Of a stretch of 64,000 nucleotides of DNA, positions 34,683-42,731 are shown one piece after another. Below the pieces are notes generated by a model. That model was not told the origin of the DNA, ran no database searches, and saw nothing but the letters and a program-made list of their open reading frames with translations. Every line of letters begins with the position of its first letter. Position 1 is the first letter of the stretch. The translations under genes and the position numbers were made by a program. The stretch lies in IMG/VR virus record IMGVR_UViG_3300028048_003161; one strand, given 5' to 3'. This DNA comes from a virus (taxonomy: Duplodnaviria; Caudoviricetes).

Positions 34683-34742
34683 AGAGATTAACATAGAATA
34701 ATTAAGTGGTTTAGCAAATAGAAATTAGTGGAGGACATAAAA

Positions 34743-36059
34743 ATGGCAGAGTTAAACGTTGAAGATAAGATGGTGCGTACAACAGTTAAGCTTAGATTAA
34801 AGATTAGTTCATTCTATTCTGCAATCTACAGTTCACTTAGTCATAACGAAAGTGACATGGTTGAGAAAATGGAGTTCTGTGGTAAAAATATGTATTACAA
34901 TCCTAAATATATTGAGGCACTTGAATCTGATGAGGTTACATTTGAGGCAATGCATTTAGCAGTTCATATTGGTTTATTGCACGTAGTCAGACTTGCAAGA
35001 AAGAAGCAAACACGTAAGTCTGTAAACTACAAACTGTTTAATATCGCATGTGATCTTATTGCGAATTCCTTACTCTATGAGGAATTTGGGGTTGGACCTG
35101 AAAGACCTGTAACATACATTAAGATGCCTAAGGGCGAGTTCTTCTGTTCTACAGTAAGTGTTGATACAGACACTGTAGAGGACTTATATGAGTATATGTT
35201 GTCACAAATGGACAATGATAAGGACTTTATTACTGTTAGAGGTAAAAAGCAACTTTCTGATTATGACAATATGCAGAATTATGCTGAACTTAAGATTGAT
35301 AAAAAAGACATTGAAAATTATACACCTGACATCAATACTACAGAGATGTCTGATGGAGTTGCAGATGCAGACGCTGTTGAGAGACAGTCACGACAGATGT
35401 TAAATGCAGCTTACATGAAGAGTAAGATGATGGGCGATGGTGCTCAGGCAGGAGTTGGTGGAGTTGGTTTAGCACGAGAAGTTGGTAAGATCATGTCAAG
35501 TCATATGGATTGGCGTAAGTATCTTAAGAGATTCTGTATCAAAATGAAAGAATCAGAGGCTTCATTTGCTACACCTGACAAAAGAATGTATTACCAGAGT
35601 TTAATCTATCCTGGACATAGTAAGAAATTAAGTAATGAGATTGACAACGTTAAGATTTGTTTTGATACCAGTGGTTCTATTTCAGAGGACGATCTGGGAA
35701 GATTTCTTGGACAGGTACTAAAGCTGACTACACAGTATAAAGTAGATGCTGATCTTATTTGTTGGGATGGGGATGTTGAGTCAGTAACAAACCTTAACAA
35801 GAAATCAACATTGAAAAACAATAAGATGTACGGTGGTGGAGGTACGGATCCTTCATGTATCTTTAGATACTTCGACTCACCTGCTTGTAAGCGTAAACCT
35901 TATGTGACAATCATCTTCACAGATGGTTATATCCTTGAAGAAGGACTGAATAACCCTTCTTGGGGTCGTAAGTACAAGGATACACTTTGGGTATTAACAA
36001 AAGATTACAATAGAGATTTTCGACCTCCATTTGGAAAAGTGACAGAGGTTGAGCAGTAG
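34743..36059 (+). CDS. DUF2201-like metallopeptidase-vWA protein (HExxH altered to HLAVH)
   Basis: YNP..., HLAVH...H..R, NIACD...N, DW...L, vWA DTSGS, GGGTD, IFTDG. Confidence 0.8.
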   Translation: MAELNVEDKMVRTTVKLRLKISSFYSAIYSSLSHNESDMVEKMEFCGKNMYYNPKYIEALESDEVTFEAMHLAVHIGLLHVVRLARKKQTRKSVNYKLFNIACDLIANSLLYEEFGVGPERPVTYIKMPKGEFFCSTVSVDTDTVEDLYEYMLSQMDNDKDFITVRGKKQLSDYDNMQNYAELKIDKKDIENYTPDINTTEMSDGVADADAVERQSRQMLNAAYMKSKMMGDGAQAGVGGVGLAREVGKIMSSHMDWRKYLKRFCIKMKESEASFATPDKRMYYQSLIYPGHSKKLSNEIDNVKICFDTSGSISEDDLGRFLGQVLKLTTQYKVDADLICWDGDVESVTNLNKKSTLKNNKMYGGGGTDPSCIFRYFDSPACKRKPYVTIIFTDGYILEEGLNNPSWGRKYKDTLWVLTKDYNRDFRPPFGKVTEVEQ

Positions 36060-37649: not shown

Positions 37650-37734
37650 AAAGTTAAACAATGGACATGGTTATAGTCATTGAAAATATAATAAATAAAT
37701 TTTTATTATTTTATTATTTTTTAGGGGTGTAAAC

Positions 37735-37989
37735 ATGAGCATTGGTTTATCAGAGATAATACTTATTGGTTTAATAGTATTAGCATTGTTCAAACCTGAG
37801 AAACTTAAAGAATATGCAAGAGCATTAGGAAAAGCACTTAGGTACTTAAAGGATGAAAAAGAGAAGATTGATGATAGTGTTATAACACCTGTAAAAGAAG
37901 CAATGGAGCCTGTAACTGATATCAAGAAAGACATTGATGAGACAGTTGGAAGCATTAAGGATACATTGACAGCAGATAATAAAAAATGA
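37735..37989 (+). CDS. tatB: TatA/TatB-family protein (TatB-like)
   Basis: IG.SEI..I....L.LF.PEKL...AR.LGK..R..K: short TM plus amphipathic helix; hinge Gly replaced by Lys. Confidence 0.8.
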   Translation: MSIGLSEIILIGLIVLALFKPEKLKEYARALGKALRYLKDEKEKIDDSVITPVKEAMEPVTDIKKDIDETVGSIKDTLTADNKK

Positions 37990-38023
37990 AAAGAACAAAT
38001 GATTATAGGAGGATAACATTATC

Positions 38024-38212
38024 ATGGGTACAGGAATTTTTGAGATTTTTCTGGTTGTTTTGGTAATATTTCTGTTTGTGGGACCTAAGCAGTTGCCAAA
38101 GTTGACAAGAGCAGTGAAAGATTCAATTCACGAGATCAAAGACGAAGTAGGCAAGGATAAAGAAAAGTCAGACAGTGAAGATGAGGAAGAGGACAGTAAG
38201 AAAGAGGCATAG
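38024..38212 (+). CDS. tatA: TatA-family protein
   Basis: G..EI..V......F.GPKQLPKL.R....SI.E.K then charged tail. Confidence 0.85.
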   Translation: MGTGIFEIFLVVLVIFLFVGPKQLPKLTRAVKDSIHEIKDEVGKDKEKSDSEDEEEDSKKEA

Positions 38213-38226
38213 GAGCGGTTGGAGCC

Positions 38227-38973
38227 GTGAAGAGACACAAGAAAAATAAAGATCCTAACAGCTTAACTTTAGGTGAGCATTTAAGAGAACTGAAGAAACG
38301 TGTATTTAGCATATTACTAGCATTTGTTGTAGTATTTATACTAGCCTATGTGAAAAGTGAAAACATATTAGCATTTGTGATGTCTTTAGGTAAAAGGGCA
38401 GGATACACATTTGTATATATTTCACCTCAAGAAGTAATTCTACAGCAGTTAAGAATTGCAGGAGTGTTTTCAATAATTGTGGTATTGCCTTTGATAATTT
38501 ATCACATTGCAAGGTTTGTTTCACCTGTATTTACAAGTAAGCATGCTTTTAGAAAGTTGATACTTATAGGAATTGGAGCAATCCTGTTCTTTGTAGCTGG
38601 TACACTATTCGCTTATAAGGTGTTACTTCCTTTTGTATATCAGTTCTTTTATGGGCTAGGAAATGACTTAGGGATTCAAGCCAATGTATCATTGGATGAA
38701 TATTTGTCATTGTTCTTAACAATTGAAATTTGTTTGGGGGTTGTGACAGAAATGCCTTTAGCTTGTTTGGTTTTAACAAGGGCAGGAGTAATAAATTCAA
38801 CCTTGTTGAAAAAGGGAAGGGTAGTAGCAACAGTGATAATATTCATTGTTGGAGCAATTATAACACCTCCTGATGTGGTTTCACAGTGTATGGTTGCAAT
38901 ACCTATGGTTGGTTTATATCAGTTAAGCATTTGGGTAAGCACTTTAGCAGAAAAGAAAAAGAGAGGTAAGTAA
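38227..38973 (+). CDS. tatC: TatC twin-arginine translocase core subunit with divergent first cytoplasmic loop
   Basis: LGEHLRELKKR, six TM segments, EMP, AIITPPDVVSQ...P...LY. Confidence 0.92.
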   Translation: MKRHKKNKDPNSLTLGEHLRELKKRVFSILLAFVVVFILAYVKSENILAFVMSLGKRAGYTFVYISPQEVILQQLRIAGVFSIIVVLPLIIYHIARFVSPVFTSKHAFRKLILIGIGAILFFVAGTLFAYKVLLPFVYQFFYGLGNDLGIQANVSLDEYLSLFLTIEICLGVVTEMPLACLVLTRAGVINSTLLKKGRVVATVIIFIVGAIITPPDVVSQCMVAIPMVGLYQLSIWVSTLAEKKKRGK

Positions 38974-38976
38974 GAA

Positions 38977-39102
38977 ATGAGTGACAGCACAAAGAAAATT
39001 ACAATTATTGGCACTGGTGCCATAGTTATAGCTGTTATTATTGGTGTAGTTCATACAGTTGCAAAGATTGTTCCTGCTATGGTTGATGATTATGAGGACT
39101 AG
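38977..39102 (+). CDS. 41-aa single-TM protein (below ORF-track cutoff)
   Basis: MSDSTKKITIIGTGAIVIAVIIGVVHTVAKIVPAMVDDYED; GAGG RBS inside tatC end. Confidence 0.6.
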   Translation: MSDSTKKITIIGTGAIVIAVIIGVVHTVAKIVPAMVDDYED

Positions 39103-39150
39103 GAATTATAAAAAGTGAGACAAGTAGTTTATTTTAGGAGGCAGTCAGAA

Positions 39151-39420
39151 ATGAAAGAGGATACAGAGAGTAAAATAACTAGAGCAGAGTTCTTAAAGAA
39201 ATCTGCATTAGGAATGGCTGCTGTAGCACTTGCAGCAAAGTTTGGAACAGGTATTGTTTCAACACCTAGTCCTACACAAAGTAAGAGTAGTGGAGGTACT
39301 TGTGTGAGTGCAGTAGCACCGAGTGATAAGACAGTTGTTTGGATTGACACAGCTCATGGGGGTATTACAAAATATTGGGATGGACATGAGTGGAAACCTA
39401 CAGTTGCTACTTGGGGTTAA
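39151..39420 (+). CDS. small protein with Tat-type signal peptide (single-Arg variant)
   Basis: AGGAGG RBS; ITRAEFLKK then hydrophobic h-region; mature part AP.D..VWID......KYWDG..W....TWG. Confidence 0.75.
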   Translation: MKEDTESKITRAEFLKKSALGMAAVALAAKFGTGIVSTPSPTQSKSSGGTCVSAVAPSDKTVVWIDTAHGGITKYWDGHEWKPTVATWG

Positions 39421-39448: not shown

Positions 39449-40027
39449 ATGAAGGCAAAAAAGGTAAAAGAGTTAAAAAGGAAACTCAAAAATGAACTGC
39501 GTAGAAGAAATGGTTATGGTTCAGTTGCTCATTTAGCTGCTAACAGGTACAACTTTGATGAGCAACCAGAAGATGGTAAGCCAATTAAAGCAGAGCATGG
39601 AGAAAAAACAGTTAATCTATTACTTCAAATAGAGGACATTGAAGGTCTGACAGCAGTCAGGAAAGGTGATCCGATACCTGAAGCTTTTAACGAAAAGCTT
39701 ATTGAAGTTGTAGAAAAGCTTGCAGGAGAAGAAATGAATGGTGAGTCAGAGTTCACTGCAAGAGTGATACATACAAACAAAAAGGCAGAGAGGTCATCTT
39801 GTAGAGCAGAATGTACAGGTTTATGTGTAGGAAGTTGCATAGGGTTTTGCAATGGATGCCATGGTTGTACAGGATGTAGCGGTACTTGTGAGGGTGAACG
39901 TGCAATTACAGGTGCTGAACAGAGAAGAGTGAATAGATGCGTTAGGACAATGAGAACATCAGTTGATAATTCTAATTGGGCAGGAATTAAGGCAGGTATT
40001 TATAATGAAGTAATTAAAAATAAATAA
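39449..40027 (+). CDS. Cys-rich CXXX-repeat protein, putative radical SAM substrate
   Basis: CRAECTGLCVGSCIGFCNGCHGCTGCSGTC (9 Cys, 39800-39889) upstream of a radical SAM gene. Confidence 0.75.
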   Translation: MKAKKVKELKRKLKNELRRRNGYGSVAHLAANRYNFDEQPEDGKPIKAEHGEKTVNLLLQIEDIEGLTAVRKGDPIPEAFNEKLIEVVEKLAGEEMNGESEFTARVIHTNKKAERSSCRAECTGLCVGSCIGFCNGCHGCTGCSGTCEGERAITGAEQRRVNRCVRTMRTSVDNSNWAGIKAGIYNEVIKNK

Positions 40028-40042
40028 TTTTGGAGAAAAATA

Positions 40043-40360
40043 ATGGAGAAACTAGACATTAAAGACAATGGATTGCATGTTTATGATGTACCTGAACGTT
40101 ATCAATATGTAATTAACAGAGGTACATTTGAATTGAGTAAGGCAGCAAGCAATATTGCTTTTATGCTTGACAAACATTTGGATGATCCTGATTGGTTGGA
40201 CAGTGAGTTGTATCAGCAGCTCGAGCATAGGTTGATTGAGACATCAATTAACAACTGGGTTTATACAAATGGTGCATTACTTGCTATGGGAATTGACCCT
40301 GCAAAGTATGCTTGGAAAATAAGCAGAGACTATACAGAAATAGCAGTTCAAAGGAGATAA
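40043..40360 (+). CDS. CXXX-repeat modification system associated protein
   Basis: helical hairpin ending W.I....TEI; similar to each half of 41935-42606. Confidence 0.55.
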   Translation: MEKLDIKDNGLHVYDVPERYQYVINRGTFELSKAASNIAFMLDKHLDDPDWLDSELYQQLEHRLIETSINNWVYTNGALLAMGIDPAKYAWKISRDYTEIAVQRR

Positions 40361-40362
40361 AC

Positions 40363-41871
40363 ATGGAAAAGCAACGTAGGAAAAGAAAGAAATTCCTTCA
40401 ATTTAACGAATGGATTTCTAATATGTACCCTGAATATGTGAGACAGGCTCAGGAAAGAGCAGGTGGGGTATCACTTACAGACCTGGAGAAAGAAAATCAT
40501 AGGGCAATTCCTTTATCAAAGGAATTTACATTTCAGGTTACAGACAAATGTAATTTAGCATGTACATATTGTTATCAGATCAACAAGTCAACAAGGAGGA
40601 TGCCATTTGAAACTGCAAAGATTGCAGTTGATAAGTTATTAAGCGGCGCAGATGGGTTTGGTGATTACGTCAATCCTGAAACATCACCAGCTATTGTACT
40701 TGACTTCATTGGTGGTGAGCCTTTCTTGGAGGTTGAACTCATTGATCAGATTGTGGATTACTTTAGAGAACAAGCTATTAAGCTTAGACACCCTTGGGCA
40801 GAGAAATTTGCAATCAGCATTTGTACAAATGGAGTACTTTACAAGGATCCTAAGGTACAAAAGTTTTTGCAGAAGAATACAGCTAATTTGAGTTTGTCTG
40901 TCACAGTTGATGGAATTAAGGAACTTCATGATGCTTGTAGAATATTCCCTGATGGCAGACCTTCATATGATTTAGCTCATGGAGCAGCACTTGATTGGAT
41001 GGCTCGTGGTTATGACATGGGAAGTAAGATCACAATCGCACCTAACAACATTAAGTTTTTATCAAAGAGTCTTAAGCAAATGGTTGAGGATGGTTACTAT
41101 GACATCAATGCTAACTGTGTATACGAGGATGTTTGGAAACCTGAACATGCAACAGAACTTTACTATCAGTGTAAAGATTTCACAGACTTTATCAAAGATA
41201 AGATTGATCTGTTTGATTATAGTTTCTCACTTTTACAAGAAAGATGTGGTAACCCTCTGTTAGAGAGTGATAACAATAACTGGTGTGGTGGTACAGGAGA
41301 CATGTTAGCAGTAGATCCTGATGGAAGAATCTTCCCTTGCATCAGATATATGGAGAGTAGCCTTGGCACACAGCAGAAGCCTATTGTTATTGGTGATGTG
41401 TGGAGAGGTATTGCACAGAAACCTTGTGAGAAAGAATGTTTAGAGTGCATGGGAAAAATCACTAGACGTTCACAGTCAACAGATGAGTGCTTCTATTGTC
41501 CAATTGGACAGGGTTGTGGCTGGTGTTCAGGGTTTAATTACCAGACATTTGGTACAGTCAACAAGAGAGCAACATTTACATGTGAGATGCATAAGTCACA
41601 GGCTTTAGCATCCTGCTATTTCAATAACAGTTTTGCTTTATTAAGCGAGAGATACAAAGATTTTGCAATGGACTTATGGGTTCCTGAGCAGTGGGCAGTT
41701 CCTATGATTGGTCAGGAAGAATATGACAAGCTTGTAGGAATGTGTAGACAGCTTGGTAGGTATGTAAATGATCAGAATGCTACAATGGTTAAGATACATG
41801 CAGATGAGGGCAGCGGTGAAATTTCTGATTACATTCATAATCAGGATAAGATTGAGGTGCTGGCACGATAA
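40363..41871 (+). CDS. radical SAM/SPASM peptide maturase, CXXX-repeat target type
   Basis: TFQVTDKCNLACTYCY, FIGGEP, TNG, DG...HD..R, SPASM WCGG...G.IFPC...C..C..C...C..C...C; AGGAGA RBS before ATG 40363. Confidence 0.9.
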   Translation: MEKQRRKRKKFLQFNEWISNMYPEYVRQAQERAGGVSLTDLEKENHRAIPLSKEFTFQVTDKCNLACTYCYQINKSTRRMPFETAKIAVDKLLSGADGFGDYVNPETSPAIVLDFIGGEPFLEVELIDQIVDYFREQAIKLRHPWAEKFAISICTNGVLYKDPKVQKFLQKNTANLSLSVTVDGIKELHDACRIFPDGRPSYDLAHGAALDWMARGYDMGSKITIAPNNIKFLSKSLKQMVEDGYYDINANCVYEDVWKPEHATELYYQCKDFTDFIKDKIDLFDYSFSLLQERCGNPLLESDNNNWCGGTGDMLAVDPDGRIFPCIRYMESSLGTQQKPIVIGDVWRGIAQKPCEKECLECMGKITRRSQSTDECFYCPIGQGCGWCSGFNYQTFGTVNKRATFTCEMHKSQALASCYFNNSFALLSERYKDFAMDLWVPEQWAVPMIGQEEYDKLVGMCRQLGRYVNDQNATMVKIHADEGSGEISDYIHNQDKIEVLAR

Positions 41872-41934: not shown

Positions 41935-42606
41935 ATGAAGATTACAGAAAAGATTATCAAAGTAAGCACGGAGGATACCAATAATGTGCAGACTTTAGAC
42001 TTGAGACAGCAGGCTTTGGAGAACACAATTGTTTCGTTTGTAGAGATGCATGCACTTGATGAGACACCTGCAGTACAGGAGAGTCCTATGATGCAGAGAT
42101 ACGAAGAGCGTTATGAAGATGCTCTGATGGCGTTTGATTCAGCTAAGTCAGCAATCGCTGATAAGTACATCGACGAAGAAATGCAGAAGATCTGTTCTAA
42201 GTGGTCACTTGAGTACAACACTTGTGAGTTAAAGTGTGAGGTTTCAGAGGGATTCAAGAATGACGATGCAGCTATTAAGGATGTGATCATCACAGTTTCA
42301 GAGGAAGATGCAAAGAAGATTCATAAGCTGGACATTAAACAGCAGGCACTTCAGAATATCGTTGCTTCATTTGCAGAGATGCATGCACTTGACAGTACAT
42401 ATGCTGCTCAGGAGAGTACTATGATGCAGAGATATGAGGAAAGATATGCAGAGGCTTTAACAGCATTTGATACTGCTAAGTCAGAATTAGCAGACAAGTA
42501 TATTAGTAAAGAGATGCAGGAAGTTGTAGCTAAATGGTCATTAGAGTATGACAGCTGCGAACTTAAGTGCAAGGTACCTGCTGATTATGAGTATAAAGCA
42601 GAGTAA
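41935..42606 (+). CDS. two-domain tandem-repeat protein, CXXX-system associated
   Basis: two near-identical ~110-aa halves (QQAL.N...SF.EMHALD...MMQRYEERY...KWSLEY..CELKC). Confidence 0.75.
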   Translation: MKITEKIIKVSTEDTNNVQTLDLRQQALENTIVSFVEMHALDETPAVQESPMMQRYEERYEDALMAFDSAKSAIADKYIDEEMQKICSKWSLEYNTCELKCEVSEGFKNDDAAIKDVIITVSEEDAKKIHKLDIKQQALQNIVASFAEMHALDSTYAAQESTMMQRYEERYAEALTAFDTAKSELADKYISKEMQEVVAKWSLEYDSCELKCKVPADYEYKAE

Positions 42607-42731
42607 TAAAAGAGAGATAGACAGGACAGCTTAAATTGGTGCACATGTTGGTTTAATACTGACATGTGCATTGATTGATGTTTATAGAGAAGAGACATTA
42701 AAGGTAGACATAAGAGAGGGAGGATAAAGCA

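Follow-up and report, generated by a model that had tools for sequence, protein, structure and literature searches.

Export by Tat (twin-arginine translocation) can work without a perfect RR pair. Natural substrates with KR (TtrB and Rieske proteins) or RNR (penicillin amidase) are known, E. coli TatB and TatC suppressors accept altered motifs such as KQ signals, and changes in the TatC N terminus and first cytoplasmic loop retune recognition. These cases are isolated substrates or laboratory mutants, whereas the departure from the twin-Arg pattern described here extends over an entire natural clade of receptors and their cargo family. The locus in question lies on IMG/VR virus record IMGVR_UViG_3300028048_003161 (Duplodnaviria; Caudoviricetes), a stretch of 64,000 nucleotides that we refer to as the window, and encodes two TatA-family proteins, a TatC, and, just downstream, a small protein that we call Sig90, whose signal reads T-R-A-E-F-L-K. 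We consider it fairly probable that these genes form a private, single-cargo Tat from a TatC clade in which the requirement for the second Arg has been relaxed throughout. In the Sig90 family, the residue in the second position may be nonbasic (A, G, L, M, S, T, or E), unlike in the isolated non-RR precedents.

In cryo-electron microscopy (cryo-EM) of E. coli TatBC with substrate (2026), the first Arg is water-bridged to TatC residue E15 and stacked under F94; in the same contact map, the second Arg is salt-bridged to E103 and packed on Y100, and the consensus Phe occupies a pocket made of F94, L9, H12, and L13 (PMC13323110). Canonical bacterial TatABC and Gram-positive TatAC systems (9dzz, 9e01, 9r91, and 4b4a) and the window locus are built from the same families, with a full-length TatC that carries H12, E15, R19, F94, P97, the Glu of transmembrane segment 4 (TM4), and T-P-P-D. 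Two TatA-family genes stand ahead of tatC in both, and the cargo has S/T-R, F-L-K, an h-region of weak hydrophobicity, and a basic c-region. The window locus differs in belonging to a variant clade in which the Y100 and E103 equivalents are replaced, in changes at Q90, W92, and L99, in the Lys hinge of one TatA paralog, in a cargo without the second Arg, and in serving what seems to be one dedicated cargo family, not a pool of substrates.

The window TatC has lost the contacts for the second Arg

The tat genes, a 41-amino-acid (41-aa) open reading frame (ORF), and the Sig90 gene are five closely packed genes on the + strand at 37735-39420. An earlier note on this DNA had listed a tatB-like gene, tatA, tatC, a 41-aa TM gene, and the T-R-A-E-F-L-K gene here, and the ORFs match that content:

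37735..37989, + strand: TatA/B-family paralog 1 (84 aa); PF02416, 39.6 bits (cutoff, 21)
38024..38212, + strand: TatA/B-family paralog 2 (62 aa); PF02416, 32.3 bits (cutoff, 21)
38227..38973, + strand: TatC (248 aa), variant clade; PF00902, 170.4 bits; TIGR00945, 167.4 bits
38500..38547, + strand: TM2-TM3 cytoplasmic loop of TatC, YHIARFVSPVFTSKHAF, acid-free in the alignment
38977..39102, + strand: 41-aa single-TM ORF; no family match
39151..39420, + strand: Sig90, presumed cargo (89 aa), from ORF and alignments; weak match to TIGR02811 (formate_TAT)
39178..39198, + strand: single-Arg motif T-R-A-E-F-L-K (context ITRAEFLKK), from the translation

The window TatC covers the whole PF00902 model (1-208/208), passes the TIGR00945 cutoff of 132.7, and matches the Aquifex TatC structure 4b4a with an E value of 4.5e-31. 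A MAFFT alignment with E. coli K-12 TatC (reference from NC_000913.3) sets the E. coli loop YQVWAFIAPALYKHER against YHIARFVSPVFTSKHAF and reproduces exactly the replacements that the note had read by eye, Q90>H, W92>A, L99>F, and E103>H; Y100>T was also found. E15, the TM4 Glu (E175; E. coli E170), and T-P-P-D (T213-D216) are intact as had been claimed, and the alignment also keeps H12, R19, F94, and P97. The residues that contact the first Arg and the Phe are thus present (H18, E21, and F97, equivalent to E. coli H12, E15, and F94), and those that contact the second Arg are replaced (T103 and H106, equivalent to Y100 and E103). Because Y100 and E103 are the second-Arg contacts in the cryo-EM map, it is precisely the second-Arg half that is lost. 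The HMMER alignment to Aquifex TatC likewise places no acidic residue in the TM2-TM3 loop. Judging by these alignments, the half of the site that serves the first Arg and the Phe is retained in the window TatC; Sig90 retains S/T-R, F, L, and K and drops the second Arg. By sequence family the system is a Tat, yet it lacks both the second-Arg contacts and the RR pair.

These replacements are not peculiar to the window. Among 120 TatC homologues collected for comparison, the motif P-G-L-x-x-x-E-K/R is absent in all of the nearest ones (to ∼35 to 40% identity) and present in more distant ones. In a FastTree phylogeny of 199 TatCs (32 clade tips and 167 others), the variant TatCs form one clade of 32 tips with a support of 0.973. 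An acidic residue at the E103 column is missing in 30 of the 32 members, and the H12, E15, and F94 equivalents vary little or not at all. Of the 167 TatCs outside the clade, 7 have no acid at the E103 column; three of these are one-residue alignment shifts, and ∼4 are genuine. Glu occupies the column in 76 of the best 80 TatCs from species genomes in GTDB; in a 77th, it is displaced by one residue. Since the altered residues recur across the clade, the apparent defects are conserved characters, and we conclude from the tree and alignment that loss of the second-Arg pocket is a trait of the clade, not an accident or decay.

Glu at the E103 column has also been lost independently in otherwise canonical Clostridial TatCs, namely L013 (an Erysipelotrichaceae metagenome-assembled genome), L023, L028, and L145. 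Within the Sig90-linked loci, the TatC of Lachnospiraceae bacterium 47-T17 (L092, 6766-7557) has Glu at the E103 column and Gln at the TM4 Glu (MFQIPVV), and the L092 TatA paralogs match Pfam weakly.

Sig90 represents a presumed cargo family with a free second position

Sig90 likely starts at ATG 39151, which AGGAGG precedes, giving the N terminus MKEDTESKITRAEFLKKSALGMAAVALAAKFG. Its layout comprises an n-region, T-R-A-E-F-L-K, an Ala/Gly-rich h-region, a Lys in the c-region, and one ∼40-aa beta module (WIDT...KYW.G..W). A motif scan of the window found this to be the sole Tat-like signal; it has T-R-A where R-R is expected, and the rest of the motif, the weakly hydrophobic h-region, and the basic c-region are present. 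AlphaFold2 predicts a signal helix (residues 11 to 31), a disordered linker, and a confidently modeled four-stranded beta module, whose predicted local distance difference test (pLDDT) score is ∼90. A Foldseek search of this model against the PDB returned nothing at an E value of ≤0.001; the best row, which we take as a lead only, was 7qof_l, a 38-residue chain of the crAss001 capsid reconstruction (template modeling score by target, 0.75; E value, 0.05).

A word-based search for Sig90 homologues did not reach beyond the lineage of the window itself. By an exhaustive profile search, 701 proteins that share the C-terminal module were recovered (E ≤ 0.001), many of them giant proteins with multiple repeats; among the 701, a subfamily of ∼85 to 100 aa bears the Sig90-type signal. 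The module itself (window 39300-39420; AP..K..WIDT..GG..KYW.G..W) occurs in up to 16 repeats in proteins of 1,000 to 3,600 aa and stands at the C terminus of many midsize proteins (P0123-P0271).

We tabulated the signals of 52 Sig90 cluster representatives (58 sequences are listed, i.e., the 52 and six close duplicates). The first Arg and the Phe are invariant across the 52 clusters. The position after the first Arg is K in 32, A in 6, R in 6, E in 2, L in 2, S in 2, M in 1, and T in 1, and the next position is D or E in ∼88% of the 58 listed sequences. In the same scan, the neighbors of canonical TatCs gave 27 RR signals and one genuine exception. Read against these, the Sig90 motif is the usual Clostridial SRRDFLK with its second Arg freed.

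The family is also tied to the variant TatC by position, as every Sig90 gene with sufficient DNA on its upstream side is situated right behind such a TatC. Sig90 follows a variant TatC in 13 lineages (window, L001, L003, L004, L005, L006, L008, L090, L091, L092, L122, G051, and G312), and the shared gene order is two tatA-family genes, tatC, sometimes a gene for a 574- to 948-aa protein, and then Sig90. In a scan of public metagenomes, all nine TatCs with a Sig90 neighbor were variants, and none of the 71 canonical TatCs had one. We infer that Sig90 is exported by the adjoining Tat. It could be argued that Sig90 is a Sec substrate whose place beside tatC is coincidental or regulatory, since it has no RR pair, which Tat predictors require, and its tiny passenger need not fold before export. 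We regard this as very unlikely, because S/T-R-x-D/E-F-L-K-K is the canonical Clostridial Tat motif minus one Arg and is conserved over 52 clusters, the h-region is rich in Ala and Gly with a basic residue behind it, and the gene comes after TatC in the 13 lineages and was not found beside canonical TatCs.

Signal and loop agree between clades and not pair by pair

To compare receptor and cargo directly, we set the state of the signal at the second position beside the TatC loop, read from the conserved Pro:

window: signal RA; loop PVFTSKH
L001: signal RG; loop PVFSSKK
L003: signal RG; loop PAIDNKK
L004: signal RK; loop PIFNTRF
L005: signal RL; loop PAIPSQR
L006: signal RK; loop PAFEIKY
L008: signal RK; loop PIFSDYK
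L122: signal RL; loop PIFSSKK
L091: signal RE; loop PNEKKIK
G312: signal RK; loop very divergent, not alignable
L090: signal RR (SRREFLK); loop PALEREV, with Glu at +3 and +5, not +6
G051: signal RR (TRRDFLK); loop PAVKRAN (PAVKRANVAK), no acid
G001/L092: signal RA (TRADFLK); loop PVFATKE, Glu retained at the E103 column

The earlier note had held that receptor and signal co-drifted into an export channel that ignores the RR substrates of the host. At the level of clades, the joint change stands, with the variant clade set against the 27 canonical RR neighbors; within the clade, there is no pairwise covariation. Exceptions run both ways, as G051 and L090 combine an altered loop with an RR signal and G001/L092 combines a retained Glu with RA. 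The note had itself named both kinds of pairing as evidence that would refute its reading, and a specific, compensatory co-drift is not supported. On this table, loop and signal are correlated between clades but not pair by pair.

This bears on the idea of an orthogonal channel, shaped by compensatory evolution of receptor and signal, that would take single-Arg signals only, reject RR, and insulate its cargo from host traffic. The coincidence at the clade level of pocket loss and loss of the second Arg speaks for such a channel, and the TatC of L013, which lies outside the clade and has no Glu, has the neighbor substrate SRKDFLK; the equally Glu-less TatCs of L023 and L145 have neighbors that keep SRRDFLK. 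However, the pairs in G051, L090, and G001/L092 do not covary, and RR persists in 6 of the 52 cargo clusters, which argues that RR is tolerated. There also seems to be little for the cargo to be insulated from. A Sig90 member occurs in the assembly of Lachnospiraceae bacterium 47-T17 (GCA_041223785.1; G001), whose single genome-wide TatC match lies beside Sig90; likewise, the Lachnospiraceae G051 and G312 have only the linked TatC, on the Sig90 contig. With one TatC in each of these three host genomes, a Tat of the host to which this one could be orthogonal is probably lacking, and the claim of orthogonality to host RR substrates is left unsupported. We consider an orthogonal channel improbable.

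A charge swap, in which the D/E of the signal pairs with the Lys, Arg, or His that replaces E103, was also entertained. It was abandoned because D/E is already standard in the canonical Clostridial RR signals (SRRDFLK), and it is further weakened by the basic residues that flank the loop in canonical TatCs too.

The tat genes and Sig90 are under purifying selection

By the Nei-Gojobori method (NG86), dN/dS is 0.19 to 0.43 for tatC, both tatA paralogs, and Sig90; as dS is saturated or nearly saturated, these values overestimate the true ratios. In every lineage, the tat genes and Sig90 have intact reading frames. At the DNA level, a rumen variant diverges from the window by ∼3 to 5%; in its tatC, 12 of the 19 listed substitutions are synonymous, the other seven are conservative (F>L, I>V, S>G, K>R, and V>A), and the loop stretch K-H-A-F-R is unchanged. 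From these substitution patterns, we conclude that the tat genes and Sig90 are under purifying selection.

Simple decay, i.e., a Tat remnant beside a protein with a chance Tat-like N terminus, would account for the joint alteration of E103, Y100, W92, TatA F39, and the hinge Gly. The earlier note had named a dN/dS near 1 as the mark of such decay, and the ratios are well below that. The genes are, moreover, open and syntenic across lineages down to ∼35 to 40% identity, the substitutions are mostly synonymous or conservative, and the altered positions are conserved features of the clade. Purifying selection rules out simple decay as far as these comparisons go, and we give it hardly any weight.

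Bovine gut data of 13 studies contain the stretch, and it occurs in three metatranscriptome assemblies, which hold 93 to 99% of its sampled words. One metatranscriptome contig of 5,821 nucleotides (nt), which is identical to the window, starts at 37715, ∼6 nt past a -10-like TATTAT. Position 37715 is not usable as the start of transcription, since another contig, of unrecorded library type, begins at 37718; the start of the first contig is only a weak promoter hint and may be an assembly break.

TatA paralogs and additional membrane proteins

Both TatA-family proteins show the layout of the family (N-terminal TM helix, hinge, and amphipathic helix) and score above the PF02416 cutoff, and every NCBIfam equivalog score is below its cutoff. 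Paralog 1 has Glu at the TatB E8 position and the hinge F-K-P in place of F-G-P; in paralog 2, the hinge is the ordinary G-P, and Ile occupies the column of E. coli TatA F39. The alignment thus bears out what had been remarked about the hinge Lys and the Ile. The Lys hinge is common to the relatives L001, L005, and L006, which makes it a clade feature and not decay.

In many relatives, a membrane-anchored coiled-coil protein of 574 to 948 aa, with an N-terminal anchor and Apolipoprotein-like Pfam hints, is encoded between tatC and Sig90:

L004: 6731-9274
L005: 6842-9109
L006: 2812-5658
L090: 1941-3665
L091: 5748-7988
L092: 7496-9988

The window, L001, and L003 do not have it. The 41-aa TM ORF in the window was found in the window's own close lineage only and might be a remnant of the anchor of the larger protein. 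Compared with the rumen variant, this ORF has 21 substitutions in 126 nt and is still open, with all 12 amino acid changes going from one hydrophobic residue to another. It is a hot spot of divergence, given the 19 listed substitutions in the 747 nt of tatC.

How the translocase might work

We propose that the element carries a minimal working Tat translocase made of two TatA-family proteins and one TatC. It belongs to a TatC clade that, in gut and rumen Clostridia, is found on mobile islands and on giant (260- to 465-kb) elements of extrachromosomal type, and it would serve essentially one cargo family, Sig90, encoded just downstream. Recognition would rest on the first Arg and the Phe (H12, E15, and F94 in TatC; S/T-R and F-L-K in the signal). 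The Y100/E103 half of the TatC site would have degenerated, leaving the second position of the cargo free to be mostly Lys, often Ala, Gly, or Leu, and sometimes Arg. The cause is likely to be relaxed constraint, not engineered specificity: with one cargo, no resident Tat substrates, and no host Tat or competing receptor, nothing maintains the second salt bridge.

Several points weigh against this proposal. The E103A variant of E. coli TatC loses substrate binding altogether (PMC13323110), and sites without F94 and E103 in the haloarchaeal TatCt, a fused TatC with 14 TM segments, are regarded as inactive (PMC13673990). For L089, an RR-type relative of Sig90, the 4.7 kb of available upstream DNA contain no TatC. 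Export of Sig90, cleavage of its signal, and dependence on Tat are all deduced. Occurrence in metatranscriptomes is a weak sign of expression, as contigs from RNA libraries may stem from contaminating DNA. Finally, that the element carries Tat into cells otherwise devoid of it, as seems to be the case, is extrapolated from three relatives and from draft genomes.

The first two of these points would also suit a receptor site that is dead or belongs to a repurposed system, one that needs another receptor element or that, e.g., inserts Sig90 as an N-terminally anchored membrane protein. Candidates for the extra receptor would be the Lys-hinge TatA paralog, the 41-aa peptide, and the large coiled-coil protein of the relatives; the peculiar conservation of the Lys hinge and the presence of the membrane-anchored protein between tatC and Sig90 in many relatives fit this explanation. 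TatCt resembles the window TatC in being a natural TatC without the E103 equivalent, but it also has no F94 and works alongside an intact TatCo, whereas F94, H12, and E15 are retained here and there is no second TatC in the three hosts. The extra components come and go within the clade, with both absent from L001 and L003, and most Sig90 signals have A-x-A-like cleavage sites after the h-region. We thus consider a dead or repurposed site doubtful, and we prefer a private Tat with a relaxed second-Arg requirement.

Hosts and replicon

Among sampled Lachnospiraceae, 19 of 401 have a TatC above the cutoff and 3 of 401 have Sig90. The contigs of relatives that carry the tat module come from gut and rumen metagenomes and span 260 to 465 kb (L120, 464,735 bp; L001, 396,244 bp; L005 and L127, ∼264 kb; and L144, 261 kb), with the L120 TatC being 93% identical to that of the window. 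Elements of this family are probably 0.26 to 0.47 Mb or more in size.

A full Tat set on a mobile replicon had been called unusual in the earlier note. This is only partly true: 122 PLSDB plasmid records have a TatC, all with <36% identity to the window TatC, and we found no credible phage record with one. A tblastn search against phages returned only host-contaminated or mislabeled records and two short fecal contigs with 24 to 27% identity, a scan of IMG/VR with the TatC alignment gave no relative, and blastn of the stretch against phage records gave no match at the DNA level. A PHROG search with 10 large ORFs of the window gave no structural (virion) matches. Genes for a ParM-like actin, a Tad-type ATPase, and a family A polymerase (PolA) are present in the window, which is co-oriented and has a strong GC skew. 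Upstream of the tat module, at 34728-36059, lies a gene for a DUF2201 metallopeptidase and VWA-like protein, which strongly matches phrog_1314, annotated as an HNH endonuclease.

The tat genes adjoin a CXXX-repeat/radical SAM system

Further genes and sites of the apparent operon are as follows:

37680..37709, + strand: candidate sigma-70-like promoter ahead of the first tat gene, TTGAAA, 18 nt, TATTAT; 10/12 matches in a consensus scan
39449..40027, + strand: CXXX-repeat protein (192 aa), no signal peptide; weak TIGR04117 match, 18.8 bits
40043..40360, + strand: 105-aa accessory protein; syntenic homologues in L001, L003, L008, L090, and L092; no family match
40312..41871, + strand: radical SAM/SPASM peptide maturase, CXXX-repeat target family; TIGR04115, 441.9 bits (cutoff, 350)
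41935..42606, + strand: 223-aa protein with an internal duplication of a ∼100-aa unit, from the sequence
42634..42676, + strand: terminator-like hairpin with a 19-pair stem, closing the apparent operon; consensus scan

The promoter-like and terminator-like sites bracket the genes from tat to that for the 223-aa protein, which look like one operon. In L001 and L003, the radical SAM gene is followed by a single gene (103 to 104 aa) that corresponds to the ∼100-aa unit of the 223-aa protein. The CXXX-repeat protein has a conserved N-terminal domain followed by a ladder of C-x3-C, with invariant Cys columns in an alignment of eight syntenic relatives. As in described CXXX-repeat radical SAM systems (TIGR04115/TIGR04117), a maturase above the cutoff adjoins a C-x3-C target; the difference is that a private Tat and a protein with a Tat signal are linked to the system here, and a limited literature search on such systems together with TatC found nothing relevant.

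The CXXX-repeat gene is usually directly 3' of Sig90 (two small genes intervene in L008), and the radical SAM gene lies further downstream in most loci with Sig90. Since the tat module and the CXXX-repeat/radical SAM genes are probably one operon, the exported product probably belongs to the latter system. Extra, very long Cys-x2-3-Cys repeat proteins adjoin the module at L093:10261-10806, L006:6587-7441, and L091:15629-16075, and one of them has its own N-terminal hydrophobic segment.

The Sig90 domain is tiny and has no obvious need for Tat unless it is exported folded, oligomerized, or with a partner. We hypothesize that the signal-less CXXX-repeat protein, matured by the radical SAM enzyme, is the natural candidate for such a partner. 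In the Tat hitchhikers HybOC, DmsAB, and PaoABC, a small signal-bearing protein likewise stands beside a signal-less partner matured in the cytoplasm (PMC4273604); the pairing of Sig90 with the CXXX-repeat protein comes from gene neighborhood and serves as a lead only. A bolder version, in which a natural single-Arg Tat has been rebuilt to read S/T-R-x-D/E-F-L-K and is carried into Tat-less gut Clostridia, where it exports Sig90 with a crosslinked CXXX-repeat hitchhiker, strikes us as rather unlikely.

Implications

A limited literature search turned up no natural TatC clade described as having a degenerate pocket for the second Arg and a dedicated single-Arg cargo family. The 2026 TatBC structures give each Arg its own TatC pocket, and the variant clade would be a natural deletion of one pocket together with its ligand. 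With its three tat genes, the locus is a compact system in which to ask to what extent RR is required and what can be achieved by the first Arg plus the Phe alone, and it may bear on the use of relaxed or orthogonal Tat systems for secretion of folded proteins. Lachnospiraceae bacterium 47-T17 carries a strain-type name and would be a bench-testable carrier if it is in culture. An uncharacterized radical SAM/CXXX-repeat system would be tied to the export of folded proteins, and giant mobile elements may be able to carry a whole export pathway into hosts without one.

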